Source: an uncultured archaeon (GTDB taxonomy: Archaea > Aenigmatarchaeota > Aenigmatarchaeia > QMZP01). From it: 64,000 nt of DNA. The first letter of the stretch is position 1. Every line of letters starts with the position of its first letter. The position numbers and the translations under genes were made by a program. Below, piece after piece: positions 310 to 50,464 of this stretch. The stretch covers positions 11,715 through 75,714 of the forward strand of contig CAZAEI010000002.1 in the NCBI GenBank assembly GCA_964484305.1, read 5' to 3'. The notes beneath the pieces are model-generated. The model was not told where the DNA came from. It was given only the letters and a program-made list of their open reading frames with translations, and did no database searches.

Positions 310-3300
310 CTATGCCCTCAGGGACTCCCTTATCTTCTTGTCAAGCTCGGCCAGCCTCTGCTCGCTCCTGTTCTTGAGGCTCTCATAGGCCTCCCTGGAT
401 ATAATCTTCTGCCTGTACTGACTCTCGAGGAGAGCCATCATCCTGGTTGTCTTGGCCTTCTCCTCCCTGAGCTTCTCGGTCTCCAGGCCGGCGCCCCTTA
501 CTGTCCCTGCAACCTGCCTGGCCTCGGAGAGCCTTCCGCGTAAAATCAGCGAAAGCCTCTTGTTCATCTTTCTGTAGGCAAATACAAGGAATGCTATTAC
601 AGCCAGGACAACCAGGGCGAATATGAGCAGTGTCAGTATCTCAGGTGGCAGCGCGAAACCGGTCAGGAGCTTGTTGAGGAGCTTCTCGGCATTGTCAAGG
701 AGTTCCCAAGCAGCGTAGACAGAGTCAAGGGCAGCGTCATAGAGGTTCTCCCTCAGGTAGCCCTCGGCGAGCTTTATCTCGTTCTCGGCATCGTCTAAGA
801 GGTCGTCAATCTCGCTGGTGTCGAACCCGGCCTCCTGGGCCTGCTCGGCCCTGTTCCTGAGTTCCTCGAGCTTTGCCTTGAGCCTGACGAGCTCGAAGTT
901 TATGAGGTCCTTCTTGGATGTGAATATCCTGAGCAGGAACTCCTCTTCGTCCGTGGACTCGGTGGAGTGGGCAACCACCCTGACTGTCCTCTCTCCTGAC
1001 TCCCCCCTCTCGGGGGTTATCTGGACCGTGATAATCGCGCTCTCTCCGGCCGCCAGGCTGCTTATGTTGGCGGGGTTGGTTATCACCCACTCACCAGGGA
1101 TCCCCTGTAAACCGAGCCATATGTTGTGGAGAGGGCCGCCCACTGCCTCGACCTCTATGTTGAACGGCCTTGGAAGGCCTGCCATAACGCCAATCTCATC
1201 AGGAATCCTGGTTATGTTTATCTTTCCCGAGGGACCGGCCGAGGGTGGGGGGGCTCCCTCACCCTCCCCTCCGCCACCGGGCTCCTCCGGGGGGGCCTCC
1301 CCTGTCACACTGAATCCTGCGCTGGCAGGGGCGGACGGTATGGAGGGGTCATAGAGGACTCTGACCTCCACGGTGTATCCCCCGGGTGGCTGGTGGGAAT
1401 ATATGAACAGGCCGTTTGATGGGCGGAATGTCATCTCCATGCCTGCCCCGATGTTGGGGGTTATCTGGCCGGAGTCCCAGGAGCGGTCAGGGCCCTGTAC
1501 CCAGTAGTCTATAATCACGTCCTCGTTGTCGACCTCGCCCTTGTTCCAGACCGTTATGTTGAAATACATGCTGTTGCCCGGGGCTATCTCCTCCTGGTCA
1601 AGGATGACCTCGACGTCATAGGGCCCTGAGGAGGATATCCTGAAGGCGAGGATGTCATGGGTCTCCTTTTCGCCGAGACTTACCCTCAGGAGGGCAAGGT
1701 ATGTCCCCGTAAGGACGCTGCTCAGAACCTCGGTGAGGGAATAGAAGCCCGCTGCTGTGTGGTTGAAGTCATCTATGTCATACTCCTTCCAGAGGTCGAG
1801 GTTGTATCCCTCGGTTCTGTATATGGTGAGGTTGATGCTATCAGGGTCCGCGGGCTCGTTATAGTTCTGCAGGACAACCACTGATACAGGCATGGCATGG
1901 TCAACCACGCAGGGGCTCGGTATGGCAAGCTTTCCCGTGAGCTCCATGTCTGCGGTCACGTTGAAGGTCACAGCAGTCTCGTTGCCCGTCCAGATATCGA
2001 ACTCCGGGTCGTACCAGGAGCCATTGGAATAAATCGTATACTCCCCCAGGGAGGCGTGGGAGGGTATCACAAAGATGTTGTCAGAGACCCAGCCCGTTTC
2101 ATCGGTCACATACTCCCTGCCCGAGAGCATGTAGACGCTCCTGTTGTCGGGGTCCTTGACAGTGAGGTTTACAGGGGCCCCGGCAAGGGATGCCCCGAGG
2201 TAGTCATGGGCCCGGTAGTTTATGCTCTCCCACCTTCCCTGGGTGGTGTCCGGCATGTCAAGGTAGACCACGTAGCGGGCGTGTGTCTGGAATAGGGAGG
2301 TGTTGGTGGCATTTACATCATAGGTGTCGTTGGCAAAGACATAGACCGTGTAGTTCCCTCTCTGGGTACTGTTGCCGCTGAAGTCGCCCGGATAGGTTAT
2401 CTTGTAGCAGAACATGTCACCGGGGTCATTGATTGCATAGACGCAGCCCGGGGGGAAATCCGGGTCCCTGTGGGAGAACTGCAGCTCGAGTGTGTCGTTG
2501 GTCCCGTCGGGCCTCTCCACGGTCACTATCACGTCGTCAAAATCTGCTCCTGACTGGCTGGTCACGTTGATGTACATTGTCGCGGTATCGGCCTGGGACT
2601 GCATATCAGGGATTATGCCAATCTCGATAAGGGGCTCCACAAAGGGGTTGAGGACAATCTCCAGGGTGATGTTGTCCGGGTCAGCCGATGCCTCTGTGGT
2701 GTTTATGGTATAGTTGGTCAGGAAGAATCCGGAGCCCGCATCCCCGCCCATGTCATAATAGATAGTGAGATTTGTGCTGTTCTGCTTGCTGATGTTGTGG
2801 CTGCTCCAGCCCGGGGTGGTGTGGTTGGCCCCGCCAGGGGGATAGAGCGAGAGGTTGAGCTGTATGTTTCCGGTGTTGCCTATACTAACGTTGCAGACAA
2901 TCCCTGTGTTGGGGCTCTGGGCATGCTCGCAGTGGGTGGGGTAGGCTGTCCAGGAGCCGTTCTCGGGCACGGTTATGTTCAGGTAGAGGCTCTTGTTCCC
3001 GTTGTTGCCTGAGGTGACGTTCAGGGTTCCGTTGTAGCAGCCCGGGTCGAATCCGGGGGGTATGGTCGCGTTTACCTTGACTGTCCTGAAGTCCCCGGGT
3101 GTCATGTTGAAGGGATAGCTCTGGTTGAAGCCCATGGTGAAGTTCTCGAACTCCCCGCTCAGGGTGAAGTTGACGAAGAGCGCGTCGTCGTTGCCTGTGG
3201 AGCGGAGCGTTATGTTGCCGACAAGGATGGAGGTGCCGTGCTCCATGGTCCTGTCAAAGCTGTCCTCAAGGACCTCAAGCGTGACATTGGAGGCCACGCT

Positions 3301-6198
3301 CACGTTTATGGCGGTGCTCGCATTCCTCCAGGATATCCCGATATCCTCCCAGAATATGGTTGCATTGATTGCATAATCCCCCGCATGGGTGAGTTCGGTT
3401 ATGTTGACGAGGAAATATGTCATGCAGACCTCTCCCTTGGTCAGGTTATAGCAGGACTGGTTGGTGTAGTTTATGAACCAGGTCTCTGGAAGGGAGACAT
3501 TCACATAGGAATTGAAGGCCGTGGTGTTGCCTGTGTTTGTCACGTTCACAGAGAAATCGAAGCTCTCATTGGAGAATGCGGTGACATACAAGGCAGTATA
3601 GGTCCCGGGTGTCGCGTTTATGATAAGGTTGGTCCCGGTGACTGTTATCGTGGTGTTGAGAAGCTCGTAGCCGCCGTTGTCAGAGGTGACGTTTATCACA
3701 CCCTCATAGACCCCCGGGGACTGGCCCGCCGGGATGCTCACATTCACCTGTACTGGCTGCTCCCCTCCAGGGCCCATGGAGCTTATGTCGGGCGGGGTGA
3801 AGGCTATGGTGAAATTATCCAGACCGAGTGGGGTTAGTGTTATGTTCAGGGTGTCGTTGTTTCCCAAGGACCTTACCATGAGGGTTTCGATAAGCTCGGA
3901 TGTCGCGCCGGGCGGGAGTATGCCTGTCACGTTCTCCTGGAGCACATCGAGCACCGGGTTCTCGTGGACGGTCACGGTGACGTTTGTCGTGTTCGAATCG
4001 TGGGAGCCCACCCTGTTGGTCCAGTTTGCTGTTATGTTGATTATGTAGTCCCTGGCCACTGAGTTGTTGAGAACCGTGATGTTGAAGTCCTTGGTGCAGG
4101 AGAGGTCTATGAGTATCTTTCCGCATGGCTCAAAGGTGGAGTTGGAGGACAGGTTGTCAGGAAGGTCCAGGGTGATGTTTGCCTCGTATGCTGTCGAGTT
4201 CTCCAGGTTATGGAGTGTAACCTTCAGGTTGAAGGATTCGTTGTCATAGAACATCACGTTGTAGGCCTGGTAGGTGCTGGGGTCAGGGGTCACGCTTATC
4301 TTGGTCTCAGGGGCCTCGACAGTATAGTTCTCCACGGTGAATCCCCAGCTCCCGTCCTCCCCGAAGGAGCAGTTGAGTGGGTAGAGGCCATAGTCAAAGG
4401 GTGTCTGGAAGGTCACTGTGTAGGTCCCGTTCCCGTGGTCTGTTATGTTCCCTGGAGGGACCTGGTCCCCGGCAGTGGTGCAGTTTATGTCAGTGGCCCC
4501 GGGTATCGTGATGTCCTGCCTGAAGTTTGTCACGTTCACTGTCGCATTCTCGACCCTGTAGATGCCTGTCTCGTTCCATATCGTTATGTTGACGTGGAGC
4601 TCTACTGTCATGTTGAAGGTGTAGTAGCTCTCGTTCAGGAAGGAGCCGTCCACATCATAGGTCCTCACTGTCATGTTCCAGTAGCCCGGGGTCTCGGAAT
4701 TGGTGAAGTTGTAGTAGGCTGTGTAGTTCCCGTCCCCTGAAATCGGGTCTGGATAGGCCCCGTCATCCAGGAGCTGCACGGTTACATCGTCTCCGGGGCT
4801 CCCAGGGGTTCCCATGTCGAGGGTGGCGTTGATATGGTCGACCAGGGACCAGTCGTCCCTGGTTGTGTTGGCCCCGAGAATCGCGGACTCGTTCCTGTTG
4901 TAGATGTCGTGGTCCGGCTCCGGCTCTAGGGCGATGACCCAGAACTCGGGCTCCCCCTCGGTTATGTTGATGTTGTTCATGAACCGGTCGCTGGTGTCTG
5001 TAAGCAGGTTCGGACTGTTCACGGTGTGGAAGAATACCATGACAGCCCTGTCCTGGATTGATTGGCCTGGCTGGATATCGGTCATGCTCAGGTTGATTCC
5101 TATCCTGTCGTTGTCGGGGGCGCCGCCGATGGAGGAGTTGCCTGCGATGAAGTTGACTGTCCCGTTCTCCCAGAGATGGGCATAGCCTCCACGCTCCATG
5201 CCGAACCCGGGGAACCCGTATACAGTGGAGCCGGGATCCTGGGACTGGTCAGGGGTGACCTTGTACCCGGACTCGTACGCACCTAGGACATCGAAGCCCG
5301 GAAGGCCCGCATAGGAGTCCCTGCTCACGGTAACCGAGTCGTTTATGTTGATAATCTCGTGCTCCACCACAAACCAGGTCTTGTTGGGATAGAACCTGTA
5401 GGTCTTTTTGAGATAGGTCATGTTGGTCCTGTTGCCGGGATCGTTCCAGTAGGTCTCGTAGCCCTCCTGGCGGACTGTTATCCTGGCAGGGCCCTCGGAA
5501 AAGCTTGCGTTTCCCCTCAGGTCATAGGCGAGGTCCTCGGCACCGTCAGTGGTCTGGATGAACTCCCTGGTCTTCTCGCCGGGCCCTGAGGGCTCGAGGG
5601 GGATGTCATCCTTGAGCCAGTACCTGTAGAGGCCCGAGGTGTTCTCGCTCCTGTTGGTGTCAAAGGTAAAGAAGCCGTATCGCTCCCCGGGATTGTTGTT
5701 GAAGGTTATGTTGAATTCGTCGCCGTCCCAGGATTTCTCCATAATTGTGCTGTAGGAGGCCTCTGTTTTTGGTGACTCCTGAGTATCGAAATACAGATAG
5801 AACCACCTCTCGGTGTGTTCTGCTGTCGTTCCGTTCAGGATGAATACCATGGTCCCGGCCGCATTGGAGCCCGCTTCGTAGTCCCCGGCCTTGTCGAACT
5901 GGCTCGGGAGCTCGTGAAGCACCCCGCCGCTGGCATTGACCTCGACCATCCTCGTGGAGTTCCCGTCAAGGCTGGCTGTGATGTTAAGGTCCTCAAGGAG
6001 GGAGGTGAAGTTTACATCGTACTCGACCGGCCATTCGAACCGCTCATAGTAGGAGGTGTTCACCGTGAGCTTTACCCTGTGGTGCCAGGAGCCGTTCCAC
6101 CACACATCACCATAGGCCTGGGGGACTGTCTGGTTGCTGACCATGAGCAGGGCTAGGAAAGCCACTGCAGCCAGTGTATATGCCAGCCTTCTCATCAT
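310..6198 (-). CDS. 1,962-aa TM-anchored surface glycoprotein. It has a signal peptide, a DUF2341-like N-terminal domain, CARDB/S-layer-like beta-sandwich repeats, a PEG-rich linker, a helical region, a TM helix and a cytoplasmic coiled-coil tail with a SHOCT-like motif.
   Basis: The ORF is long and uninterrupted. SD GGAGTGAT lies 2 nt upstream of ATG 6198 and 5 nt upstream of ATG 6195, so the second ATG may be the true start. N-terminus MMRRLAYTLAAVAFLALLMVSNQTVPQAYG. The WWNGSWHHRVKLTVN...WFYLYFD block resembles DUF2341. NxS/T sequons are dense. The C-terminal TM is LTLLIFALVVLAVIAFLVFAY followed by RKMNKR. The tail is ...QYRQKIISREAYESLKNRSEQRLAELDKKI. The start lies 9 nt after the stop of the upstream gene. 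Confidence 0.9.
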   Translation of the reverse strand: MMRRLAYTLAAVAFLALLMVSNQTVPQAYGDVWWNGSWHHRVKLTVNTSYYERFEWPVEYDVNFTSLLEDLNITASLDGNSTRMVEVNASGGVLHELPSQFDKAGDYEAGSNAAGTMVFILNGTTAEHTERWFYLYFDTQESPKTEASYSTIMEKSWDGDEFNITFNNNPGERYGFFTFDTNRSENTSGLYRYWLKDDIPLEPSGPGEKTREFIQTTDGAEDLAYDLRGNASFSEGPARITVRQEGYETYWNDPGNRTNMTYLKKTYRFYPNKTWFVVEHEIININDSVTVSRDSYAGLPGFDVLGAYESGYKVTPDQSQDPGSTVYGFPGFGMERGGYAHLWENGTVNFIAGNSSIGGAPDNDRIGINLSMTDIQPGQSIQDRAVMVFFHTVNSPNLLTDTSDRFMNNINITEGEPEFWVIALEPEPDHDIYNRNESAILGANTTRDDWSLVDHINATLDMGTPGSPGDDVTVQLLDDGAYPDPISGDGNYTAYYNFTNSETPGYWNMTVRTYDVDGSFLNESYYTFNMTVELHVNITIWNETGIYRVENATVNVTNFRQDITIPGATDINCTTAGDQVPPGNITDHGNGTYTVTFQTPFDYGLYPLNCSFGEDGSWGFTVENYTVEAPETKISVTPDPSTYQAYNVMFYDNESFNLKVTLHNLENSTAYEANITLDLPDNLSSNSTFEPCGKILIDLSCTKDFNITVLNNSVARDYIINITANWTNRVGSHDSNTTNVTVTVHENPVLDVLQENVTGILPPGATSELIETLMVRSLGNNDTLNITLTPLGLDNFTIAFTPPDISSMGPGGEQPVQVNVSIPAGQSPGVYEGVINVTSDNGGYELLNTTITVTGTNLIINATPGTYTALYVTAFSNESFDFSVNVTNTGNTTAFNSYVNVSLPETWFINYTNQSCYNLTKGEVCMTYFLVNITELTHAGDYAINATIFWEDIGISWRNASTAINVSVASNVTLEVLEDSFDRTMEHGTSILVGNITLRSTGNDDALFVNFTLSGEFENFTMGFNQSYPFNMTPGDFRTVKVNATIPPGFDPGCYNGTLNVTSGNNGNKSLYLNITVPENGSWTAYPTHCEHAQSPNTGIVCNVSIGNTGNIQLNLSLYPPGGANHTTPGWSSHNISKQNSTNLTIYYDMGGDAGSGFFLTNYTINTTEASADPDNITLEIVLNPFVEPLIEIGIIPDMQSQADTATMYINVTSQSGADFDDVIVTVERPDGTNDTLELQFSHRDPDFPPGCVYAINDPGDMFCYKITYPGDFSGNSTQRGNYTVYVFANDTYDVNATNTSLFQTHARYVVYLDMPDTTQGRWESINYRAHDYLGASLAGAPVNLTVKDPDNRSVYMLSGREYVTDETGWVSDNIFVIPSHASLGEYTIYSNGSWYDPEFDIWTGNETAVTFNVTADMELTGKLAIPSPCVVDHAMPVSVVVLQNYNEPADPDSINLTIYRTEGYNLDLWKEYDIDDFNHTAAGFYSLTEVLSSVLTGTYLALLRVSLGEKETHDILAFRISSSGPYDVEVILDQEEIAPGNSMYFNITVWNKGEVDNEDVIIDYWVQGPDRSWDSGQITPNIGAGMEMTFRPSNGLFIYSHQPPGGYTVEVRVLYDPSIPSAPASAGFSVTGEAPPEEPGGGGEGEGAPPPSAGPSGKINITRIPDEIGVMAGLPRPFNIEVEAVGGPLHNIWLGLQGIPGEWVITNPANISSLAAGESAIITVQITPERGESGERTVRVVAHSTESTDEEEFLLRIFTSKKDLINFELVRLKAKLEELRNRAEQAQEAGFDTSEIDDLLDDAENEIKLAEGYLRENLYDAALDSVYAAWELLDNAEKLLNKLLTGFALPPEILTLLIFALVVLAVIAFLVFAYRKMNKRLSLILRGRLSEARQVAGTVRGAGLETEKLREEKAKTTRMMALLESQYRQKIISREAYESLKNRSEQRLAELDKKIRESLRA

Positions 6199-6207: not shown

Positions 6208-8034
6208 CTATTTCCTGTCTCCCTCTTTGCTGTTCTTTTTCACCCCAGTCTCGCCCCTAGACTTCCCCTTGGGGATGAGCCTCCTGACCTTCTCAAAGGC
6301 CTTCCTGCTTATCAGGCCCCTCATAAGGGAGTCCTCGAGTTGCGAGAGCAGGCTCGCCTGCCCGTCGCCAGAAGGCTTCTCGGGCCTGGGTTTGGTGGAG
6401 CCCTCTGGTAGGGGCTTTGCTTCTGGCTTCTGCTCGACCGGCTTCTCACCTGGCAGGGTCCCTGCCTTCTCAGGCTTCTCACCGGTAGGCGGTGCCTTGG
6501 AGGGCTGCGACTCAGGGGACTTGGCCTCACTTGTCTCATCAGGCCCCCCGCCCGCTGCAGGTGCTGACATGGGAGGCGCGGGTTCGCCGGCCCTGGCGGT
6601 CTCACCCGGAGAGGTTGCCTTTTCAGCCCACTCCCGGGGGCTCGGGGCGCCGGGGGTGGCCTCGGATATCTTATTGTCAATTTCCCTGAGCCTGCCCAGG
6701 TTTATCTGCTTGGTCTTCTGGTATTCCTTTTCGGGGAGGGCCCCTGCCTTGAACTGCTCGTCCAGCATGGCTATCAGTCCCTCGATTTCGGTCTTCTGGG
6801 ACCCGAGCCTCTGGACATCGGGGCTTGTCCCTGCCCCGGTCTTTATTGAGGCCAGCTCGGTCTCTGTGGTGTCCCTGAACAGCTCGAGGTCGCTCTTCTC
6901 GGCATACTTCTGCATCTTTATGTTGATATCGTCCAGGGATTTCATCATCTCCTGGGAGAGCTCGTCCAGGGTGTCCTGCTTGGCCTTGTATAGCACGAAC
7001 TCGTCCAGGCGCTTGTTGAGCTCCATGAATATGCCGTCTATCTTGTCGGCAATCCTGCTTATCCTCTTTTCCCTGTTCTCGATTTCAAGGAGCCTCTTGG
7101 CAGCCTCCTTGGAGAAGTTGACAATCTTCTCAAGGCTTCCCAGCCTCTTGAGGACATTCTCTATCTGGCCCAGCCTCTTGAGCATGAGCGAGGTCATCTC
7201 ATCCAGCTTGTCGATTCTGGCCCCGTGCACCTTTATTGAGGCGTCCTCCTCCCTCATGGCCTTGAGGAACCTCTGGGGCCTCATGTCTCCCAGGGACTCG
7301 TCAACCCCGGTCACCCTTATCTCGGACTCGCTGAGCCTCCTGTCCAGGCCGGACACGTTGGAGCGGATTTCCCCCACCTCCTCAGTGAGCCGCTGCATGC
7401 CCTCCCTTCCTGTGGAGCGCTCGTCCTTCATGGAGTCAAGGTAGGCCCGGACCTTTTCGAGCTGTACCTCGATCTTGTCCACCCTGGGCGCGACCTCTAT
7501 TCCCTGGGGCTTGATTTCCTTCAGTGTCTTGGTTAGTATATCCTTGATTTCATCCGCAGTGTACCTGAGGGTTCCGGGCTTTCCCCCTCTGGCAGCGCCC
7601 GGGGCCTTCTCGGGCTTCACCTCCCCGACCTCGCCGGCGATGTCTGTGAGGGGCTGGGGTATTCCTGCGTATTCCGTGGACTCGGCCTCTGGTGTTGTGA
7701 CTGGAGGGGCTGTCTCGGCAGAGGGTGCGGCAGGGGCTGTTGGAGGTGCTGATACAGCTGGGGCAGGCTCGGGTTCCTTGGCCCCCCGGGCCTTCCTAGG
7801 CTTCTCTGATTTCTTTGCGGGCTCTGGCTTCTCCTTCTCGGCCTTCTTGGCCTCGCTCTTCTCGAGCCTCTCTATCATTTTATTGAGCTCCTCGAGCTTC
7901 TTCTGGTTCTTGCCCTTCACCTCATTGTAGTGCTCCTCGGTTATGCTGGCCTCCCTGTAGGCCTCCTCGAGTGTGGAGAGCAGTATCTCGATATCCTCCT
8001 TGTGCTTCTGAAGTTCCGTAAGGGTTTCTTTCAT
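6208..8034 (-). CDS. 608-aa cytoplasmic coiled-coil protein with P/A/E/K-rich linkers and three SHOCT-like motifs. No signal peptide or TM is visible.
   Basis: SD GGAGGTG lies 5 nt upstream of ATG 8034. Heptad-like, charged sequence runs through the centre. The motifs are ASITEEHYNEVKGKNQKKLEEL, GALPEKEYQKTKQINLGRL and GLISRKAFEKVRRLI, which resemble the G-x-I-[ST]-x-x-E-[YF]-x-x-x-K consensus of SHOCT (PF09851). The antisense ORF 6134-7444 is a shadow ORF. Confidence 0.85.
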   Translation of the reverse strand: MKETLTELQKHKEDIEILLSTLEEAYREASITEEHYNEVKGKNQKKLEELNKMIERLEKSEAKKAEKEKPEPAKKSEKPRKARGAKEPEPAPAVSAPPTAPAAPSAETAPPVTTPEAESTEYAGIPQPLTDIAGEVGEVKPEKAPGAARGGKPGTLRYTADEIKDILTKTLKEIKPQGIEVAPRVDKIEVQLEKVRAYLDSMKDERSTGREGMQRLTEEVGEIRSNVSGLDRRLSESEIRVTGVDESLGDMRPQRFLKAMREEDASIKVHGARIDKLDEMTSLMLKRLGQIENVLKRLGSLEKIVNFSKEAAKRLLEIENREKRISRIADKIDGIFMELNKRLDEFVLYKAKQDTLDELSQEMMKSLDDINIKMQKYAEKSDLELFRDTTETELASIKTGAGTSPDVQRLGSQKTEIEGLIAMLDEQFKAGALPEKEYQKTKQINLGRLREIDNKISEATPGAPSPREWAEKATSPGETARAGEPAPPMSAPAAGGGPDETSEAKSPESQPSKAPPTGEKPEKAGTLPGEKPVEQKPEAKPLPEGSTKPRPEKPSGDGQASLLSQLEDSLMRGLISRKAFEKVRRLIPKGKSRGETGVKKNSKEGDRK

Positions 8035-8076: not shown

Positions 8077-8134
8077 GCGTGCACTCCAGTGCAACAGCTC
8101 CTTAACTTCCTGTTATGCAGCTTTGTCATCTGCA

Positions 8135-11100
8135 TTAGCCTCCCAGCTTCCTTATCCTGTTCTTCACCGAATCTATGTAGGTCTTTGACATGGTGAACAT
8201 GGTCTGGCTTATCTTGTCCCTGGCCAGCTTGAGCTCGAACTCTATGTCCGTGGTATCGATGCCGCGGGCCTTTAGCTCCTTGGCCTTCTGCATCAGGGAC
8301 GTGACCTCGGTGTCGTACCTTATGTACTCGTCTATGTCCTTGTCGCTCAGCCTGCCTGTGTCGTGAAGGAGCGGCCTGAACTCTATGAAGTATGGCTTGC
8401 CGTGGTTGAATTCGGCGTTCTGGACCATGCCGGTCCCGGTCCTGAGCTTGGTCGTGGTCGAGGCATACTGGAAACCGTACTTCTGGGTGACCCTCCTGAT
8501 GTCGCCTGTGTACTTCGTCCTCATCTGCACCTCTGTGGATATGTTGGCCCTGATGGCCCCCTTGAAGTCCATGAGGACCTGGGATATCAGCCAGAGGCCG
8601 ATGCCCCACTTTCGGAACTCTCGGCAGCCCCTCTCCAGGGCCACGTAACCGCCCTTGCCACCGTACTTGGGCAGGAGGCGGTGGACCTCGTCATAGACTA
8701 TGAAGAGCTTTATCTTTGGAGATTCGGGCCAGGGTATCTTGAACATGTCAGCTATGGTCTTCCTGACAAAGATGTCGAGCTGCGCCGGCTCCATCTTGTC
8801 TATCAGGACGACCGTTATCTCTCCCGGGTTCATGTAGTTCCTGATATCGATAGCGGTGTTGGGGTCAGTGATTCTCGTTATCCTGCCCTTGTAGCGCCTG
8901 GCATCCCCGGGCTTGAGACCGAACCTGGGGTAGAGCTTCAGCATCCTCTGGTCCCTGCAGGGCCTGAGGAATCCCGTCCACTGGCAGGTCGGGTCAAAGA
9001 CAATGACGGGGATGTTCCTCTTGAGCATCTCCTCGACCACAATCATGGAGGAGACCGTCTTGCCCGCGCCCGTGGAGCCTGCGGAGATGCCGTGGGTCTG
9101 GAGCTGGGTCATGTCAAAGTAGGCAAGCATGTCGGTCTCCGCAACCTTGCCCACCACAAAGGCGTTCGGGCCTGCCTGGGGGAGCTTCTTGAAGTCCATG
9201 GGGAAGATGTACCTGGTCTTCTTCTTTTTCTTGAGCTTGATGTAGCGGTAGCCGTACCTGCCCCCATAGGCCGCGGGCACGACAAAGAAGAGGATTACAT
9301 AGGTCAGCCAGTTCCAGAATATCGCGCGGAGGGCCGCTATCACGGGCGGGAGCTCGGTCACGTCAAAGGCGTCGGCGGCGAAGGCGAACTTGTTCCCGTG
9401 CCAGTATGTCACGTTCGCCTCTATCACATACCTGTCATATGGGGTGTCCGAGGGTATGGTTATGTTCCTCCTAAAGGTAAGGCTCTGCTCCACTGCAACG
9501 GTCTCCTTGAATATCGTCATTATCTCGTCTGTGTTGAGGTTCTTGATGGTGTACTGGACAATGATGTCCTCTATGGTGGCTGTCTCTCCCATGTTGACGA
9601 GGGTGACCTCGTACCTGAACTCCTCGTTCGGGGCCACTGACTTGGTGAGGGACTTTACCTGGACGTCGAGGAGCGGGCTCGGTATCTTCTCCACCTTGAT
9701 GGTTACAGGGGTCCTGTGGGTTATGCCGAAGCCCTCCACATTGGTTATGATGTCCCCGGTGTAAACCCCGGGCTGGGTTGTCGGGAGGGTGTAGAGCTTT
9801 ATCTTGCTCACACCCACAGACCTGCCTGATATGGATATGCTCGGGCTCTCTATCTGGACCATGTCCCATATCAGGCCCTCGACAGTGAAGTTGGCTGTTA
9901 TGGAACCTGCGCGGTTGTTTATTATCTCCATGGAGTGTATCTCGTACTCGCCCTGGGAGAGGGTCACATAAATCAGGGTGGTCTTGACCTCGATTGGCCC
10001 GGAGACCGTGACGGCCTCTGCTGCGGCTCCGCCCCCACCCCCGCCTCCGCCCTCCTCGGGCTTCGGCACTTCGGGTATCACAATCGGGCAGTCGCCCGGG
10101 CATCCCGCATTGGACTCCCCCTTGGCTGACTCGCACACATCGTCGCCGCATATCCATTCGGCCAGGACAAATGCCCCGTTCAGGCTGCTCATGTTGGCTG
10201 CTATCGAATAGAATGTCGAGTTGACCGTGCTGGCAATGGCGACCCATGTTCCCTGGCAGCCCTCCATTGGAACCCAGTCGTCGCACTGGTATATGCCGAG
10301 GTTCTGGAGCATGAAGTCCGAGAGCTCGCACTCGCCCTCAATATAGCACTCCTCGCAATCAAGCTCCAGGCTCGCATAGCTGTAGTTCACGGGCTGCGTG
10401 TATATATAGTAGCCCTTGAGGGATTTCTGGGGCATCTTGACCCCCGGTATCTTGCCGAAGAGCACGGGGTTGTAGACATCATAGACCAGCTCTGAATCGT
10501 AGAGTATGACGGTCTCGTTCCTGAAGGTGATGTTGATGTCATAGGCCCTCATGTCAAGGGTCTCGTTGTAGTGCCCTGTCGCTCCCTCGGTGGTGAAGTT
10601 GTAGGCCTCGTATGATGTCCCTGCAAGCAGGAAGGTGAAGTTCAGGTGGAAGTGTGGCTTGTGGAGCTTCTCCATATTCACGGAGTCGCCTGACCACATC
10701 ACGCCCGGGAATATCTCAAAGCTCTTATCAGAATAGTTCCAGTTCCCGGAGAGGTCCCAGGCAGTGGCATTGACATGGTAGATGCCGACCTGGCTTGTGT
10801 AGTTCATGGCCACCACGAACCTGTAGAGGTCGCCGAGCTTCTCAACAAAGGTTGCGTTGAAGTCCATGGTGGAGTTGTCAGGGAATGTTACCTCCAGCTC
10901 TGCGCGCTCGACCCCGCCTGAATCGGTCGCGTTTATGTAGATATAGGCAGTGGAGTTTGCCGGGACCCTGGGCGGGACCTCGATTGCGACTTCCGGGGCA
11001 ACCCGGTCTATATAGATGACTGCCTTCATCTCGATGTCATGGAGCCATATCGAGGCATTCACATAGAGGGCACTCACATTGAGGTCATAGCCCTTGTTCT

Positions 11101-14100
11101 CGCTTATGTTGGGCGCAGAGAAGTTCAGGTGCCAGAGGCCTGTGTAGTTGGAGTAGTTGGCCGAGGTTATGTTCAGGTGCCAGCTCCCCGTGGCATTGAA
11201 GAGTGTGAGGTTGAACTCCACGCTGTGGTTCAGGGGCTCCCCTCCATAGGTCACGTTCACCTCAACCTGGATTGCGTCGCTGGCTGTGACGTTCTTTGTC
11301 GGCTCTGCCTGGGTGGGGTGGGTCAGGTCAAGGGAGAAGGGGAAGGCATTTACCGTCACCCAGGTCTCCTGGTAGGTGGGCTCGCCGGCAGAGAGGTTCT
11401 CGGTCCTTATCAGGCTCTGGTAGGTGGTGATGTCATCGATATGTGGGAGTGTGTAGTTGACCATTATCGTGTCAGAGCTTGCTATGTCCAGGTCGAGCTC
11501 GTCCTTGTCCAGGGGTATGTAGGGGGTGCCGTTCCCGGACTGGATGACCTCGAGAATGAGCCTTGCGTTGCCTGTATTATGGACAGTGATGTAGCCCATG
11601 TTGCCGCTCGTCTCATGGCTCAGGTTGATTGTGATGTCCTCGGGGTCGTGATACCAGGAAAGGTTTATGGGAACAGTCAGCACTATGAAGACCGTGTCGT
11701 TTGAGCCGCCCGCCTCAAGGGCCTCCACGGTGCCTGCATACTCACCTGCCTTGTACAGGGGCGGCACCGTTATGGTGATGTTCACCAGCTGGCCCTGGCC
11801 GGGCTCAAGAACAGAGATGTTCAGGGGATTGAAGCCCACGGTGAAGTTCTCGCACACCTCTCCCCAGATGCAGCTGTAGGTGATGTTGGTGGCGTTGACA
11901 TTGCCGATGCTGTAGATGTTCATGGTCTTGTTCCCTGTGCCCCCGCTCCTTACAAAGTAGGGCAGAGTGGACTCGAGTATGTCTATTGCGGGGTTCGGCT
12001 GGACCATGACCAGGATGGAGGTGAGGTTGGTTCCGTTGGTGTAGCCATTGAGCTCTGTCCAGTTCGCTGTCAGGTTCACGGTGTAGTTGCCTGGCCATGT
12101 TGATGTGGCCACTGTCACCCGGCTCTCGTTGGACTTGGTCTCGTGCTTGAGCATGTCACTGAAGTTGAAGGTATCCGGGGCGGCTGACCATGAGCCTGGG
12201 AGCCCCAGGGTGACGCTGAGGTTGAAGAGCCTTGCCCAGTCCGGCATGACAGTGAGGTTGAAGTCAAAGTCCTCTGAATCAGACAGGGTTATCCCTGTTA
12301 TGTTGACCTCGCTCACATTGGTTGTCATTATCAGGTGGGTGGTCCCTGCGCCATAGAGCTGTATCATTGACGTGCACCCGCTCAGGCCCGCAGTGTCATT
12401 GGCGCAGATGTAGAGGTCGTGGTAGCCCTCAAGGCTCGAGTTGTATGTGGCGTGGTAGAAGGGTTTTGCAGTGCCGTTCATCTGCTCTGTGTAGGCGCTG
12501 ACATCCAGGACAGAGTAGTTGAGCCTGGCGTCATAGGAGGCGTTGCCGTCCATGGTCATGTTTATGTGCTGGTAGCCCGGGAGGGTGAAGGAGGCGCCCC
12601 CTGCCACGGCGTCTATGGTGGCGCTCTGGCCACTGGGGATGGAGATGTTGTCAGCCACGAGGAGGCTGTTGACGGCCAGGTTGAGGCTTATCTCTGTTCC
12701 GTTGTTGTTCTCGATGGTAATGTTGAAGTAGAGCATGCTTGCGTCGTAGAGGCTGTTCACCTGCTCGGTGTAGTTGAACCCGGAATCGCTCGTGGCGCTG
12801 TGTATCATCTTTGATTCATTGATGTATCCACAGTCGGTGGGCCTCACCACCCTTATCCAGGCGTCACTGACCTCGAAGTTGTCGGTGATGTTTGCCGATA
12901 TGCTGACGTTCTCATATCCGGCCTCGAATACAAGGGGCGTGGCATTGACATCATCTATAAGGGGCGGGGTGTCGGTCACATTGAGCCAGAGGTCTGTTAT
13001 CCATTCCTGGGGGTCTGCTGTCTCGTTCCTGAGAATGAGCTTCACGTAGTACATGCCCTTGGGTTTGGCAACCGGGACAATATAGCTTATGGTGGTGTTC
13101 CGGCTGACCTGCTTGCCGAGTTCGAAGTACTCCGGGTCTGCCAGGACCATGTCAGAGCCGTTCTCGGTCCTGTAGACCTTTATGGCAATCCTTGAGTTGC
13201 CTATATTGGTTGTGGTTATGTTGCCTATCGCTGCCGAGGCGTTCAGGAGTGCGAGTATGGGGTTCTCATAGCTGGAGAGGCTCCCGGGGGTCCTTGTCCA
13301 GCTCGTGTTCTCGGGTACATTGACCGTGAGAATCATGTCATCGGGTTCGGTGTTGCTGGCCGAGGCCCTGACCACGGTCCAGTAATCCCCGGGGGGCTGG
13401 CCTGCGGGAATGTCTATGTAAAGGCTTGAGGAGAACTGGTAGCCCGCCTCAAGCCTGCCCCAGGCAGCGGGTATGATGTCGACCACGCACTCCGGGCATT
13501 CTGAACTGAGGTTGCCCCCGACCATGGTTATGTCTATGTCATCCACGGCATCATTTCCAGAGGAATAGACCGTGAAGTTGCCGACATAGTAGAGGGTACT
13601 CTCGTGCGGGACGGTGTTGGTCAGCTCATCCTCCACTATGTCCAGTATGGGGTTTGAGGACACGAAGACGTCGCTCCAGTTCAGGGTGGAGTTCAGGGTA
13701 AGGTCAGGGTCTGTCCAGTTTGCGTATATCATCACCCTTATGAGCATGGGCGGCGTGCCCGCAGGCACGTCCACTGTGAGGGGCCAGGTATAGGTCTCGT
13801 TGACAGAGAGGTTGCCTATATCCTGGTAGGTATCATTTATCACCAGGGTGTCATTGGGGTCGTCCATGCTTCTGAGTTCTACATAGTATCCCGTGGGCGG
13901 GCCGAGGTTGGTGAAGTTGACGCTCAGGTTGAACTGTGCCCCATGGGACTGGGTTATGCCTGACATAAGTATGGTCTTGTTGAGCTCTATCAGGCCTGTT
14001 ATCTTGCCCCAGACATCGAATGTGCCTGCATAGAGGCTGGCGTTGTTGTATTCAGGTCCGGTGTCCTGGGCCCATATCCATACATGGTAAAGACCGCTCA

Positions 14101-17100
14101 AGACTGGAACATAACTGACCCTGTAGAGGTCTCCCCCGAGGCTCTCGTTGGTCATGGTCACGTTCTCATGTGTCTGGTTGGGGAGAAGTATGTCAGCCCA
14201 TACCTTGTTGATGCCCACGTCATCGGTCACGTTGGCTGTGATGTTGGTGTAGTTGAGGTTGGCCTCGATGCTGGTGTCGGGGACAATGGATGTGTTGGTT
14301 ATGACAGGCAGGTTGACATCCCGGATGGTGATGATGCCCTGAGCCTCTGAGATGCCGGCCTGTATGAGCCGGCTGGTGTTGTCTGTGATGTTGCACTTGA
14401 AATTGAGGTTGCCCTTCTGGCCCGGATCAAAGGTATGGTTGATGTAGCCGGAGGGATTGGTGGTGAAGTTGTTTATGAATACCCAGGGCAGGCCCGCGGA
14501 CTCCCAGTAGTAGTAGAGCTCTACATCATAGTCCTCCACGGGCCCCCCGCCGGCTGCCTCGGCGTACCTTACCTGACAGAACACGTCAAAGGGAACCGGA
14601 TACGGGAGAAGGGTGTAGTTTGCAGGGGAAACATAGTAGACATCAACAACAGCCTCGATTGTAATGAGCACGGAATTGTTGCCAGCGGCATAGTACTGCT
14701 TGGTGGCATTGGATGTGATGGTCCTGTTGCCCGCCTCCTGGCCTGTCAGGGGATAGTTGGGATATGTCTGCATGTCAGTGAGCATCCCGGTCTCGTTCCA
14801 CCACTCGACATCGCACCCGGAGATGACCGAGCCTGCCTCGTCTGTTATGTTGACGTCCAGGTCGACCGTGCCTGTCTTGGGGTGCTTGCTCTCGTCCACA
14901 GGGGAGGTTATGTTAAGGATGAGCACACCTATAACATCGAGGTAGGTCTCGACTGTGTCTGAATCGCTTATGCCCGCCTTGGTGGCGTTGATGTGTATCG
15001 TGTAGTTCCCTGGCGCGATGTTGTCTGTCACATTGTAGGTTATGTTGCAGCGGCCCCACTGGTCTGTCGTGCAGTTGCGTATGAAGCCCGAGTTGTTGTA
15101 GAAGCTGACATTGGCGCCGGAGGCGTTGCCTATCTGGGCGTCGTTCACGTGGACGCAAATCTCGGTCTCGTGGGGGTCGTAGCTATCGTTCCTGTATATG
15201 GTTCCATAGCTCTTGGTTATCTCGTCTATTATGAGCTGCCTGTTAACCGTTATGTTGCTCATGCGCTCTCCGGCAGAGACATTGTAGTAGAGGACATCGT
15301 CATCTGATATCTTGCAGGATATGTTGTAGGGGCCAGCGTCCTCCCATTCTGTGTACCAGTACCACGTGGCGTTGCCCTGCCAGTCTGTGTCGTCACTGGC
15401 GTTGTACACGCCGTTCTTGTAGAAGTCCACGTTGTAGCTCTCTATGGACTGGCCGGTATTGATGTCAGAGACGTGGCAGGTAATCCAGGTGTTCATTGCC
15501 CCTGCGTCGAATTCTGTCCCGTTGGGGGGCCACATGGTGTCTATACCTGCCCATCCGTATATCAGGATATCGGTCTGGTTGGTTCCCTTGTCGTGATGCG
15601 TCTTGGTGGTGTTTATCCTGAGGATGTCAGGGCCGAGCTCGTAGGATTCGCCTATATACCAGCTCCTGTCATAGAAACCGAGGCTGCCGTTATCGGTGGT
15701 GTTTATGAGGTCCCAGGACTCGTTCTGCCAGGTGAGAGTGGAGTAGTTTATATAGGTCCCGCAGTCGTCATTGACCGTTGCGTTGAGCGTGTATGTCAGG
15801 TTGCGGTTGAGGACGTCCCCATCCACGGGTGTTGTATAGTTCGCATAGAGCTGGCCAAAGACCTGTAGGTTTTTCGTGCTGCTGTTCAGGGGCTGATAGC
15901 AGGAATCCAAGGTCTCCAGCTTCCATTTCTGGATTCCTGCAGGTGTGGCACATCCCGGATTGTGATTCACGTCGCAGTATCCTGCCCCGGTGGTGGTGCA
16001 GTCATAGAAGACCGTGAAGTTCTCGTAGTCCTCGGTGATCCAGAACCCGGTGTCCACTCCGTCCGGGTATTTGTCGAAGGCTGCGTCCGTGTCCTCAATC
16101 CTGATGTTGAGGAAGGCGTTCTGGGCACCCACCCTCCTCACCGTGGTGTTGCTCGCGGGCAGGCAGTCTGTGCCGTCGCAGAGGTAGACCGTGACGTTGT
16201 CCTCCTGGAGATAGAACTCATGCACGCCCGCTATGTAGTGGAGGTAGAGCGAGAACCTGGCGCTTGCGTTGCCCCCTGAGCCGTTTGTCACTGCTATGGA
16301 TATCTGCTGACTCCCCGGTGGGGTGAAGTCGAGTCCTCCCTGGCGCCTTGCGTCGTAGCTCGCGTTTTCGCCGGGGGCAACGCTGAGATTCTGGGCCACT
16401 GTTATGCCGTTCACCTCGAGGTCGAAATAGAGCGTGCTCCCGTTCTCGTTCTGGAGCGTGACATTGAACCTCTCCACATCATAGAACGCATCGATGTAGT
16501 GGCTGGTAGAGAAGCTCTGGTAGAGCATGGATTGGTTCAGGTAGGTTGTGTAATTTGCCTCCCCGGAGCCCCCCTGGCCGTCCGTGACAGTGAAGTTTAT
16601 GTCCTGGCCCCCTGGCAGGGTGAATGACGCGCCGCCTGATATGGCGTCCACTGTAGCGTTCTGGCCGTCCTGGACGCTCTGGTTGTCTGCGACCTGGACC
16701 CCGTTGACAGAGAGATTGAAGTACATCACAGTGCCGTTCTGGTTATGTATGGTTATATTGAAGGTCTCGAAGAAGCCTGCCTCGTCAGTGGTCTCGGTGT
16801 GGTTGAAGCCCGAATCTGCCTGGCCAGAGGCATCGTGTATGGGTGCCTCGCTCCAGGAGGTGTTCTTGAGCTGCAGGGAATCATCGGTAACGGTCTTGTT
16901 GCTGTCGTCAGTGAAGTTGAACTCGTCCTTGGAATTGAACCTGAACTGGTTCCATCCCATATCTGCGCAGGCAAAGTGCTGGTCGAAGTGAACCTCGTCA
17001 TCCCCGAGGTCATACTCCCAGGTCTGGTTAATCAGGAGCCATTCATCCCAGTCTCCCTGGGAATCGTTCCACTGCCTCTTCCAGAGCGTTATGTTGTTGT

Positions 17101-20100
17101 AGTTGCTGTCGGCGTCTGTTATGACAACCCAGACGTAGAAGTTCTCGCCCCAGCCGCCCAGCTCCTTGTCGATTCCCGCGTCCTGGATGTCCGGGGCCAG
17201 GGCAATGAAGAAGGCGTCTTCCCTGAGGGTCTGGTTGGGACCGTAGTATTCCTTGTCTGCATCCATGGTTATGTTGTACCAGTCGGTCCGCTTATATGTC
17301 TCTGTCCAGGTGTAGTTGTACCACCCCTGGCTCTGATTGGCCTGGTCCTGGTTTTCTGGCCACTGGGTTGTTTTCCTGCTGAACACCCACTGGACTGTTG
17401 AGTTCTCAACAGGGTTGCAGTCATCTTCTATGTAACCCACGACATCGAGCGGGGTTCCCCAGAGAATCCCCTGGCCGTGCGGCTCATGGATTGTCATTAT
17501 CAGGGTTGAGTTGAGGTAGACCGTGTATTCAGTGGAGTTTATGGGCTTGTAGCAGACATCCTCCTTGAGGCCTCCCACGCCGGCCTTCCAGTAGTGGGGA
17601 CCGACCTTGTAGTCGCACTCGGGCTGCGGCACCTCATCCATGAAGTCATATAATATGTAAGCAGAACCATTGTCAAACTCGTACTTACCCACATCCCAGG
17701 TATCCAGGGAGTGATTGGTTGTCACCCAGAAGGTCGCGTTTGTTGCGCCAATGGTGCCGGTCTCTGCGTAGTTATTGGTGTCGTTGTCCCATACCCTCAT
17801 AATCAACTGGTAGTTGTCAGAGCCGTTCCTCCATATATAGGCCTCGTGTCCCTGCTCGAGCAGCATGTAGGCATTGTCCCTTTCTATTGTGAAGTTGCCG
17901 GGCCCTGTCTCATTGGTGAAGGGCGGGCTTCTGTTGTCCGTGGCCTTGAAGTAGAACTCCCAGTCATCTATGTTGCCGCAGTCTATGGGGTCATCCCTCC
18001 AGGAGAGGTTGATTATCTCTCCCACAGCCGTGTCGGCTATGGTGGAGTTCTTGGGAACCCCCCACAACGAATCTGACTGCTTCTTTGCGTAGAGCTTTAC
18101 CTCAACCTCATCATAGTCCTCATCCGTGAGGTTCACGCTGAAGTGGAACCGCTCGCCCCAGCCCCCGGGGTTTGTCAGTGCAGTCTCCTGGGTCAGGACA
18201 GGCTTGGTTACCACCTCGAAATGGGATTCCCATGTGGTTGCGTTGCTGTAGTGGTAGGCCATGGAGGAGTACATGGTGTTGTTGTACCACCTCGCCTTCA
18301 TGCCGGTGGTGTTGCGCTTGCATCTGTAGTATATCGTGCCCTCTATGGTGTAGTAGAGGCAGGGATAGACATCACTGTCATCCACATGGGTGAAGTTGAA
18401 CGTGACATTCACCCCTGTCTTGGTGTCCCCGCAGTCGTCCTCGACAAGGCCCTTGGTGGATATGTTCTCGACCCCGCGCTCGTACTCCTCATCCTGGCCA
18501 GGCTCCTCTATGTCCCCGTAGAGGCTTCCCCATATCTCCAGGGTGTAGTTCTGGCTGGTGTTCACAGCCGCGTAGCAGGAGTCTGTTATGCCTGCCTTCC
18601 ATTCCTGGGGCCCTACCTCATACTTGGGGCCTGAGCAGCCTGGGTTGAAGTAGAGCAGGGCGTGGCCAGATGTGTTGGTCTGGTTCAGGTTCCCTCCATC
18701 AAAGACTGAGTTGTTGTAGGTGGTCCAGAAGGTTATGTCCGTCCCTGTAAGGACATGACCCACCCTCACGGTGTCGTTGGTATAGACCGTGTAGGTGGCC
18801 AGGTGGTTGGAGGAGGAGTCGTCCCTGTCTATAACAGACTCGTTCCCGAAGCTGTAGGTTATCATGGCCGTGTCTGCGGTGAGGTTGGGGCCTGTGATGT
18901 TGTCAGTGTAGTTGACATTGGTCTCGTCGTCTATCATGAAGTGGAAGCTGTTGTCTGTCCCCATGTCTGAGCAGTTGAACTCTGTCCCGTCCAGGGCGTC
19001 ACCCACGGTGAGGTTGCAGTAGTCCCGGCCCCCCCAGATTGTTGTCCAGTTCTTCTTGTAGTAGCTTGAGCCGCCGTCTGTGGAGACCCAGAGCTCGCAC
19101 GTCACGTTGTCCTGCTGGGTGTCCCATATCTTCACGCTGTAGGTATAGACCCCTCCCCAGGGACCCTCGCCGGGCGTGACATTCACCTCGCTTATGGCCG
19201 GCGGGGTGTTCTCGAGATAGAACCAGTCATCCCAAAACGAGGAATTGTCAGGCCTGTAATAGGTCTTGCTCGCATTTATCCTGACATCGTACCAGCCTCC
19301 CTTGTGGAATGATGTGTCCAGATCGTAATTATACCAGCCGTCTCCCTCATCCGCCGGCGTGTGGGAATCCCAGCTGCTGGTGGGGTGCTTGAACTCTATC
19401 GTGGTTGTGGTCTCGTTGACAAGCTGACTGCAGTCGTCTGTCACGTTGTACCTGCTGTAGAGCATATCCCCCACCGTAGAGGAGTTGCCCTGCTGCGGGG
19501 TATCGATGGTGGAGTTGAGACGGCCGTACACAGTCAGGGTGGTGGAGGAAGAGTTGCCTGCATAGTTCTCATAGCATTCGTCAAGCTCTATGCCGCCCTT
19601 CCAATCATGGGAACCCACCTCGTAGAGCGGGTCGCAGCTCGGGTCGAACCATATCCTCATGTAGCCGTCGCCTGAGGTCTGGTTCGCATGGCCGTCGTCC
19701 CAAGTGCCTGTATCAGAGCCGTTAAAGGTTACCCATATCTTGCCGTCAACGCCTGCAACAACGTTGGTGTAGCCCTTGTCCAGGTCCGAGAAGTACACGT
19801 TAAGGTAGGCGGTCTCCTGACCCTCCCTGTCCACCTCATCATCTGACGCGCCCGCATAGGTATAGACCCTGTCCTTGCCCATGTCCCAGTTCTCGGTAGT
19901 GGTCTCGTTGGTGTCGTTCCACTTGTCTGTGACGTTAATCAGGTAGTAATTGGTGCCCTGTTCGCCACAGTTGAATGTGTGCACAAAGGTGAAGAGCTGC
20001 TCATTGGGGTTGTTGCGTATGGTGTAGTTTATCAGGGTCCAGTTGTCCACGCCCACGCTCTTCCATAGGGTTATGTTCACGGAATCCGAGGCCCCCTCGT

Positions 20101-49710: not shown

Positions 49711-49729
49711 CCCGTGCCTGTCTCTCTGG

Positions 49730-50413: not shown

Positions 50414-50464
50414 CTGGGATTTTCTCTGCTTTAGATGAAATAGGTTCGCTATATCTGCCACCAA

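Follow-up and report, generated by a model that had tools for sequence, protein, structure and literature searches.

A 13,441-codon gene from an uncultured Aenigmatarchaeota archaeon: a probable SPEARE family member with a predicted HerA-clade ATPase tail

What can a P-loop ATPase be doing at the end of a protein that lies almost wholly outside the cell? The question is raised by a giant gene in a 64,000-nucleotide stretch of DNA (the window; assembly GCA_964484305.1, contig CAZAEI010000002.1) from an uncultured archaeon of the Aenigmatarchaeota. A first-pass annotation, made from the letters alone, had described a HerA/FtsK-class ATPase fused behind the membrane anchor of a giant ectodomain. 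By identity and architecture, the protein is here assigned to the SPEARE family of giant DPANN surface proteins, as an Aenigmarchaeota member, with a probability of roughly 85%. Most likely it serves as a fibre for host attachment, the tails of which form a ring driven by ATP.

The gene occupies a single open frame of 13,455 codons in the open reading frame (ORF) list (8135..48502, reverse strand). Its likely start is the ATG at 48460, which opens MKEKYLLILIFLLLYLPVTVKA and gives a protein of 13,441 residues. From the N-terminus to the C-terminus, the protein consists of a signal peptide, an ectodomain of about 13,000 residues, one transmembrane helix, a polybasic stretch and a P-loop ATPase of 374 residues. 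The parts up to the ATPase are located as follows.

8135..48460, reverse strand: giant gene, 13,441 codons from the likely start ATG at 48460, TAA stop at 8135-8137 (ORF list, translations, start and stop context).
48395..48460, reverse strand: N-terminal Sec-type signal peptide MKEKYLLILIFLLLYLPVTVKA (hydropathy peak of 2.22 at the N-terminus).
9326..48394, reverse strand: extracytoplasmic region of about 13,000 residues, rich in N, T, S, D, Y and W.
9260..9325, reverse strand: single transmembrane helix AIFWNWLTYVILFFVVPAAYGG, residues 13,046-13,067 (hydropathy; AlphaFold2).
9209..9259, reverse strand: polybasic juxtamembrane stretch RYGYRYIKLKKKKKTRY (translation), cytoplasmic by the positive-inside rule.

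Scanned by Kyte-Doolittle hydropathy over its full length, the protein shows the signal peptide, one transmembrane segment and an Asp-containing hydrophobic stretch at residues 850-871. In an AlphaFold2 model of a 395-residue tail segment, the transmembrane helix is one unbroken helix (residues 5-35 of the segment). According to the positive-inside rule, the basic flank of a transmembrane helix marks the cytoplasmic side. Having a signal peptide and a single transmembrane helix, the giant protein is therefore a type I membrane protein with a cytoplasmic ATPase tail. In the translation of 8135-10198, AIFWNWLTYVILFFVVPAAYGG is followed by RYGYRYIKLKKKKKTRY and then by 357 residues to the stop; the figure of 374 residues is counted from the end of the helix. 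The tail contains the following features.

8351..9208, reverse strand: predicted HerA-clade RecA-like ATPase core (Pfam, profile against PDB, invariant columns, AlphaFold2, Foldseek).
9056-9079, reverse strand: Walker A motif GSTGAGKT (translation).
8969-9007, reverse strand: VIVFDPTCQWTGF motif, in the ATPase core.
8681-8707, reverse strand: Walker B motif with catalytic glutamate, LFIVYDEVH (translation).
8579-8635, reverse strand: ERGCREFRKWGIGLWLISQ block, with an arginine aligned to HerA R381 and a sensor glutamine aligned to Q392.
8138..8350, reverse strand: C-terminal three-helix or coiled-coil segment (AlphaFold2 helices at 327-352, 358-372 and 376-394).

In-frame translation places the helix, the basic stretch, both Walker motifs and the ERGCREFRKWGIGLWLISQ block where the first-pass annotation had put them, with its count of 374 residues from the helix end and its order of motifs both correct.

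Assignment to the SPEARE family begins with the tail. BLASTP aligns it with the C-terminus of the SPEARE protein of N. antarcticus at 39% identity over 359 residues (E 6e-97), terminal helices included. The sequence of that protein was taken from Fig. S18 of the supplementary information of PMC6642349; its last 358 residues align with the tail over their full length, and the helical segment of the tail is conserved through to its C-terminus. The family was described by Hamm et al. in 2019 (PMC6642349) as nanohaloarchaeal proteins of up to 8,553 residues, mostly extracytoplasmic, with a transmembrane helix close to the C-terminal end. Conservation is highest in a cytoplasmic P-loop region, which was labelled a type III restriction enzyme. 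Similar sequences were reported from Woesearchaeota, Aenigmarchaeota, Micrarchaeota and Altiarchaeales, and production of a SPEARE protein was shown by proteomics (PMC6642349).

Later work has extended the family. A 2023 paper in Front Microbiol (PMC10266531) described SVXNc_0300 (9,409 residues) and BNXNv_0298 (8,880 residues), which consist of a Sec signal, about 75 Ig-like domains, a transmembrane helix, a cytosolic "VirB4/TraG-like" ATPase and a coiled coil. SPEARE was re-annotated accordingly, and a secretion "straw" was proposed. Other published members are NAR1_1133 of Ca. Nanohaloarchaeum antarcticus (5,998 residues), the protein of Ca. Nanopetramus SG9 (8,553 residues) and a protein of 12,127 residues from the EX4484-52 metagenome-assembled genome KA27 (PMC8470020).

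The giant protein shares with these the signal peptide, the very long ectodomain, the single transmembrane helix on the C-terminal side, the cytoplasmic P-loop domain, the terminal coiled coil and a DPANN host. The first-pass annotation knew of no such enzyme on a giant ectodomain; this is contradicted by the published architecture (PMC6642349, PMC10266531, PMC8470020). The present gene adds a member of unusual length to a known class and founds no new one. Its 13,441 residues exceed any length found in the literature, subject to the caveat about repeats given below. The functional ideas first offered for it, an oligomerised fibre and contact-dependent translocation, overlap hypotheses that are already in print.

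Two further differences can be noted. Nanohaloarchaeal SPEAREs are described with at least one laminin-G domain and other adhesion domains, whereas the present ectodomain has no laminin-G, protease or beta-propeller domain that can be detected and consists mainly of two unannotated arrays of repeats. Laminin-G is treated here as a variable rather than a defining feature of the family, because the authors of PMC6642349 call the ectodomains variable and assign the Aenigmarchaeota relatives by their tails. In SVXNc and BNXNv, a second VirB4/TraG-type ATPase is encoded downstream; here the downstream gene encodes a coiled-coil protein.

A DPANN origin of the window is supported by the closest proteins and loci, which are labelled Aenigmarchaeota or Aenigmatarchaeota and include a fragment (P0002) that is 94% identical and the locus L010. 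The taxon labels of related proteins and loci are those of their submitters. The archaeal mevalonate-pathway genes of the window, described below, agree with an archaeal source.

In some DPANN archaea, SPEARE-type proteins occupy several percent of the genome, and expression of one has been found in a cultivated symbiont. Such proteins are the leading candidates for host attachment and material exchange by ultra-small archaea. Their sole conserved enzymatic part has so far been annotated in three incompatible ways.

Two Pfam models match the tail above their cut-offs, DUF87 at 30.5 bits (cut-off 23.2) and HerA_C at 29.1 bits (cut-off 22), and the P-loop assignment is therefore beyond chance. 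T4SS-DNA_transf (14.4 against 20.1), TrwB_AAD_bind (12.1 against 20.5) and FtsK_SpoIIIE (12.9 against 24) all stay below theirs, and CagE_TrbE_VirB does not match the tail at all. A profile of 77 homologues, searched against the sequences of the PDB, finds eight entries that are HerA or HerA-like, with S. solfataricus HerA at the top (4d2i, E 1.4e-12). The sole other match is DotL at 0.009; VirB4 and FtsK are not among the matches.

Predicted structure gives the same ranking. The AlphaFold2 model of the tail, built on the alignment of the 77 homologues, has a predicted local distance difference test score of 93.7 and a predicted template-modelling score of 0.89. Its best Foldseek match is again S. 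solfataricus HerA 4d2i (E 4e-12, template-modelling score 0.52), with TcpA, FtsK and a viral packaging ATPase ranking behind the HerA chains. For membrane-anchored FtsK-like and coupling ATPases, the fold matches have E values from 1e-9 to 3e-8. VirB4 is absent from the top 50 structures.

The catalytic residues can be followed in the alignment; tail residues are numbered by their positions in the 395-residue segment. K88, D211-E212, R234/R237 and S247-Q248 show no variation among the 77 sequences. Aligned to 4d2i, E212, R237 and Q248 of the tail stand opposite E356, R381 and Q392 of HerA, which we take to be the catalytic glutamate, the trans-acting arginine finger and the sensor glutamine. 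An arginine finger had been proposed as something to look for, and R237 fits that description. The match to 4d2i begins at residue 117, past the N-terminal HAS barrel of HerA; in its place, the giant protein has the transmembrane helix and the basic linker.

The tail is thus predicted, from its sequence and its modelled fold, to be a catalytically intact HerA-clade P-loop ATPase of the FtsK-HerA superfamily. The elements of the HerA core are present, namely the DUF87 match, intact Walker A and Walker B motifs, the arginine finger and the sensor glutamine, which bears out the HerA/DUF87 class given in the first-pass annotation. Like HerA (4d2i, 9x1l), the tail has Walker A and B, a "DP.." motif after strand 2, an R-K arginine-finger block, an S-Q sensor and a C-terminal helical extension. 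Unlike HerA, an archaeal and bacterial translocase of DNA-end resection, it has a transmembrane helix instead of the HAS barrel, and the window holds no NurA-like gene.

Closest after HerA are ATPases that work at the membrane. CedD is needed for DNA import in Crenarchaeota (PMC11868833), and CedD and CedB resemble the present tail in having a transmembrane anchor followed by a HerA-like ATPase (best E for CedD 8e-16). The NCBIfam models matched by most of the 77 members are CedD (76) and HerA_Thermprot (74), followed by TraC, TraD and TraB, every match lying far under its curated cut-off; for the tail itself, CedD reaches 26.7 bits against 600 and helicase_HerA 15.7 against 970. With CedD and HerA as the nearest curated models, the suggested kinship to membrane-anchored DNA-import ATPases is supported. 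Unlike CedB and CedD, the present protein lacks a VirB4-like N-terminal domain and a CedA-type polytopic partner in its operon, and the phyla differ; the Ced proteins for their part have no giant ectodomain. FtsK/SpoIIIE, Streptomyces TraB, TcpA and VirD4/TrwB belong to the same superfamily and likewise join an N-terminal membrane anchor to a cytoplasmic ring ATPase. They have two or more transmembrane helices per subunit and no large ectodomain, whereas the present protein has one helix.

The tail is not an orthologue of HerA, CedB/D, VirB4, VirD4 or FtsK. Searches of the tail and of the window did not find the features proper to HerA itself (barrel, score at the NCBIfam cut-off, NurA), to CedB/CedD, to VirB4/TraG, or to a ResIII enzyme with nuclease or methylase modules. 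The call of a HerA-clade ATPase is nonetheless more precise than the published labels "restriction enzyme" and "VirB4/TraG". An anti-phage HerA system was considered and rejected; PADLOC gives only weak generic HerA matches (34.7 bits), and no partner effector was found.

If the tail were a type III restriction enzyme, it would degrade imported DNA, as proposed by Hamm et al. in 2019. The Pfam model ResIII (PF04851) does match the P-loop region, and this match probably explains the published label. However, its 16.5 bits fall under the cut-off of 22.5 and are far weaker than the DUF87 and HerA matches. The predicted fold is HerA-like, the tail is without a nuclease or methylase domain, and the assignment is disputed in PMC10266531. 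The chance that the tail is such an enzyme is negligible.

A fused gene of this length could also be an artefact. Mis-assembly, or a stop or frameshift that was missed, could have joined the ATPase to a gene from which it is separate in the cell, and two observations lend this some weight: stand-alone forms of the ATPase with their own signal peptides exist, and the giant gene holds near-identical repeats. The junction, however, which comprises two beta-sandwich domains, the transmembrane helix and the ATPase, is unique, non-repeat sequence by self-BLASTP and keeps the same order in independent assemblies, to which it aligns at 70% DNA identity. A stop or frameshift around 9260-9330 would have made the ATPase an independent gene; none is present in the window, as judged from the assembly and from conservation across genomes.

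Evidence for the fusion is also provided by the relatives, which were scanned in one genome per GTDB species. At least 548 are confirmed, and all except one are labelled DPANN or unclassified archaeon. Of the best 80 loci, which were used to analyse the upstream frame, 72 have a frame 5' of the ATPase that stays open as far as the data reach, and in 43 of them it runs for at least 3,000 residues. A HMMER search of 1.84 billion representative sequences gives 878 matches, 361 of them at E <= 1e-30, with lengths of up to 7,852 residues; in most of the 150 matches listed, the ATPase is at the extreme C-terminus.

Only a few loci break the frame. In L001, the closest relative (70% identity in DNA, 88% in the ATPase), the gene seems to be split, with calls that end at 9869 and restart at 10001. 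This split was rejected, since a scaffold gap of 10 N shifts the frame and both sides align to the giant protein of the window. The locus L048 has an in-frame TGA at 8533-8535, inside the last conserved beta-sandwich domain and just before the transmembrane helix. In L005 (6100-10000), several frameshifts lie between an ORF of 8,615 residues and the ATPase. The breaks in L048 and L005 are probably sequencing errors or pseudogenes. With the breaks reduced to an N gap, a stop inside a conserved domain and a cluster of frameshifts, an artefact at the junction is as improbable as the restriction enzyme, and both readings are effectively excluded.

Some lineages do encode the ATPase separately. Genuine stand-alone forms of about 727 residues are found in L066 (2465-4639), L068 (9017-11200) and L080 (3832-6024), each preceded by an ORF of about 311-323 residues; these forms have a signal peptide of their own and a Cys-rich domain at the N-terminus. 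Further forms with their own signal peptide occur in L002 and as the 550-630-residue proteins P0039, P0098 and P0106. Further upstream of its stand-alone ATPase, L068 has a separate ORF of more than 2,196 residues. The giant chain and the ATPase are therefore split between genes in some lineages. The suggestion that relatives might carry the ATPase as a separate neighbouring gene thus holds for these forms, and fails for the 72 of 80 loci in which the frame stays open; there the ATPase is physically fused behind its anchor. The first protein search returned fragments of at most 690 residues and gave the impression of a family of short free-standing proteins, an impression that the analysis of loci and the HMMER search corrected.

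Fused proteins are the rule in this family, whose minimal unit consists of a signal peptide, one or two beta-sandwich domains, the transmembrane helix, the ATPase and the terminal helices. One relative, L018 (JAEOTG010000200.1), carries a Candidatus Heimdallarchaeota label; it is a contig of 3.5 kb with a tail of 61% identity, the coiled-coil partner described below and the start of a homologue of the 1,962-residue protein. It is most likely a mis-binned DPANN contig.

The ATPase gene also has conserved neighbours, which are listed here with the genes upstream of the giant gene.

6208..8034, reverse strand: candidate partner of 608 residues, a soluble cytoplasmic coiled-coil protein with Pro/Ala-rich linkers, no transmembrane segment and no P-loop; Shine-Dalgarno-like GGAGGTG upstream.
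310..6198, reverse strand: second partner of 1,962 residues, a type I membrane protein with signal peptide, NPCBM_assoc match (75 bits), transmembrane helix and cytoplasmic coiled-coil tail.
48457..50464, reverse strand: two small secreted, sequon-rich proteins of 244 and 426 residues, upstream of the giant gene.
51936..52682, reverse strand: archaeal MinD-type ATPase (NCBIfam minD_arch, TIGR01969, 234.9 bits against a cut-off of 201.75).

In 78 of 85 loci, the ATPase gene is directly followed on its own strand by a gene for a coiled-coil homologue of about 500-600 residues, which makes the 608-residue protein a candidate partner of the ATPase tail. AlphaFold2 models it as an all-helical rod with one helix of 146 residues (predicted template-modelling score 0.23). 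Searches of Pfam, NCBIfam, PDB and PADLOC with this protein give only chance-level coiled-coil matches, and no mention of it was found in the SPEARE literature. The 1,962-residue protein is matched in 73 loci; in about 50 of these the match lies downstream of the ATPase gene, nearly always on the same strand. In 30 related loci, a MinD homologue is encoded within 10 kb of the ATPase gene, a linkage that hints at spatial positioning of the system. The coiled-coil protein, the second type I protein of about 2,000 residues and, often, the archaeal MinD form a conserved operon with the ATPase gene.

The 608-residue protein carries the motif I-[ST]-x-x-x-[YF]-x-x-x-K at its N-terminus, in its middle and at its C-terminus, and the cytoplasmic tail of the 1,962-residue protein (310-500) has the motif as well. 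This may be a shared interaction motif. A SHOCT-like identity for it was dropped, as the excised segments find no support in Pfam at E <= 10.

These neighbours bear on the proposal of PMC10266531 that the tail is a VirB4/TraG-type ATPase of a type IV secretion system and the giant protein a "straw" that injects effectors into the host. The proposal was published for SVXNc_0300, BNXNv_0298 and SPEARE with a second VirB4/TraG-family ATPase downstream, and the tail does show weak, sub-threshold similarity to the TraD, TraC and TrwB models. Cytoplasmic bridges have been reported, as has host DNA that is methylated at the motif of the symbiont (PMC11001535). In the present data, however, no VirB4, TraG or TrwB model reaches its cut-off, and HerA is ahead in both profile and fold searches. 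The downstream gene encodes a coiled-coil protein without a P-loop, in the window as in the 78 of 85 loci. Within the 64-kb window there are no VirB4, VirB6 or VirB2/B8-like genes, nor any for a pilin, a relaxase or a nuclease. A type IV secretion system of this kind is thus quite improbable here.

How could a fibre with ATPase tails work instead? The Sec signal peptide would export the heavily glycosylatable, repeat-built ectodomain of about 13,000 residues, and one helix would anchor it in the membrane. The ectodomain is probably the host-binding fibre of an ectosymbiont. Inside the cell, the tails would with comparable probability form a ring, probably a hexamer, with catalysis at the subunit interfaces, because the conserved arginine aligned with the trans-acting finger of HerA implies interface catalysis. 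In such a ring, several giant chains would be bundled at one site of the membrane. The transmembrane helix replaces the N-terminal entry face of HerA, so the membrane would take the place of that face and the axis of the ring should point toward it.

To our knowledge, all membrane-anchored members of the superfamily (FtsK/SpoIIIE, TraB, VirD4-type proteins and CedB/CedD) move DNA or secretion substrates at the membrane. For this reason, a translocation motor at the contact site is the preferred function of the ring, if tentatively so. By analogy, ATP hydrolysis could power the movement of a polymer (DNA, perhaps protein) through the membrane of the symbiont, or along it, at the site of contact with the host. 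Export of the ectodomain by its own tail is unlikely, because the ATPase is made last in the chain and an ordinary Sec-type signal peptide is present.

Several observations weigh against this picture of a fibre with a translocating ring. One transmembrane helix per subunit amounts to six in a hexamer, which are too few to line a channel for DNA or protein. The window encodes neither a polytopic membrane partner nor a second VirB4-type ATPase, to which the absent nuclease, relaxase and pilin can be added. The conserved partners are coiled-coil or scaffold-like proteins, which fit anchoring and positioning as well as transport. No Laminin_G or other recognised adhesion domain was found by Pfam in the ectodomain, searched in three chunks at E <= 1e-3. 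Finally, the exact length of the giant protein is uncertain owing to near-identical DNA repeats.

The main rival explanation takes up some of these points. A ring that moves nothing could oligomerise the chains and build, position or remodel a platform under the attachment organelle, together with the coiled-coil partner, the tail of the 1,962-residue protein and MinD, and turnover of ATP would control assembly and disassembly. The conserved neighbours, a coiled-coil rod, a type I protein with a coiled-coil tail and an archaeal MinD, speak for such a platform, as do a window without channel-forming or DNA-processing genes and a single transmembrane helix per subunit. Yet the full catalytic set is strictly conserved, which argues for mechanical work, and we know of no FtsK-HerA ATPase that is purely a scaffold; the characterised ones thread a polymer or energise secretion or pilus biogenesis. 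A pure scaffold is on balance only slightly less likely than a motor at the contact site, which is tentatively preferred.

A more far-reaching version of the motor can be imagined. The HerA-clade tail, the coiled-coil protein, the type I protein of about 2,000 residues and MinD could together make up an undescribed, DPANN-wide apparatus for contact-dependent transfer of DNA or protein that is not of type IV. The ring of tails would be its motor, and the bundled ectodomains would serve as a conduit or tether between symbiont and host. This is unlikely as it stands. If true, it would give a molecular handle on the acquisition of nucleic acids or the delivery of effectors by genome-reduced DPANN archaea.

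Relative to the published work, a very long Aenigmarchaeota example and a firm assignment of the tail to the HerA clade are added here, as is the conservation of the fusion and of an operon of three to four genes across hundreds of DPANN species. The affinity to HerA and CedD, and the conserved operon with its coiled-coil protein, second giant protein and MinD, are modest additions. Together, these findings narrow attention to whether the ring forms, what the tail acts on and how it interacts with its coiled-coil partner.

The ectodomain itself is built largely from repeats. Its features are as follows.

35303..44605, reverse strand: first array of repeated modules, residues about 1,300-4,400 (self-BLASTP depth).
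40235-41967 and 41972-43701: tandem DNA duplication in the first array, a 1.7-kb pair that is 95% identical (self-BLASTN).
15803..33505, reverse strand: second array of repeated modules, residues about 5,000-10,900 (self-BLASTP).
21632-22643 and 24737-25749: DNA repeat pair in the second array, 1.0 kb, 99.8% identical (self-BLASTN).
10016-10057, reverse strand: poly-Gly linker before the membrane-proximal domains (translation).
9359..10006, reverse strand: two membrane-proximal beta-sandwich domains, CARDB/NPCBM_assoc-like by resemblance (translation, comparison with short family members).

The near-identical pairs are recent duplications of modules. They are also the source of the caveat on length, since a short-read assembly is a poor guide to the exact length across such repeats, and the length and copy number of the gene may therefore depend on the assembly. 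The ectodomain contains 729 N-X-S/T sequons. In Pfam it has one match, to NPCBM_assoc (41 bits, 12056-12223), and otherwise only sub-threshold ones such as CarboxypepD_reg. No sequence in the PDB matches any of the three chunks searched. The CARDB/NPCBM_assoc-like naming of the membrane-proximal domains reflects a resemblance in sequence and a weak Pfam match. The last beta-sandwich domain (9359-9676) is also found in the short stand-alone members with which it was compared (P0106, P0039, P0098, P0095 and P0022). The guanine-plus-cytosine content falls to 0.486 at 46001-48000, against about 0.55 elsewhere, in an interval that covers the unique N-terminal, distal part of the giant gene.

Upstream, the TGA stop of the 426-residue gene overlaps the ATG of the giant gene as ATGA, which suggests co-transcription and translational coupling. 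By eye, the C-terminal half of the 426-residue protein resembles the first 300 or so residues of the giant protein. The 244-residue and 426-residue proteins have no homologues in the related loci, and their membership in the system is therefore uncertain.

The other genes of the window are housekeeping genes, among them genes of the mevalonate pathway and glycosyltransferases. A mevalonate-pathway trio lies on the reverse strand at 52713-55703 and consists of a DUF35/oligonucleotide-binding-fold protein (52713-53165), a thiolase (53251-54438) and a protein like 3-hydroxy-3-methylglutaryl-coenzyme A synthase (54666-55703). The trio fits an archaeal genome that retains the synthesis of isoprenoid lipid precursors.

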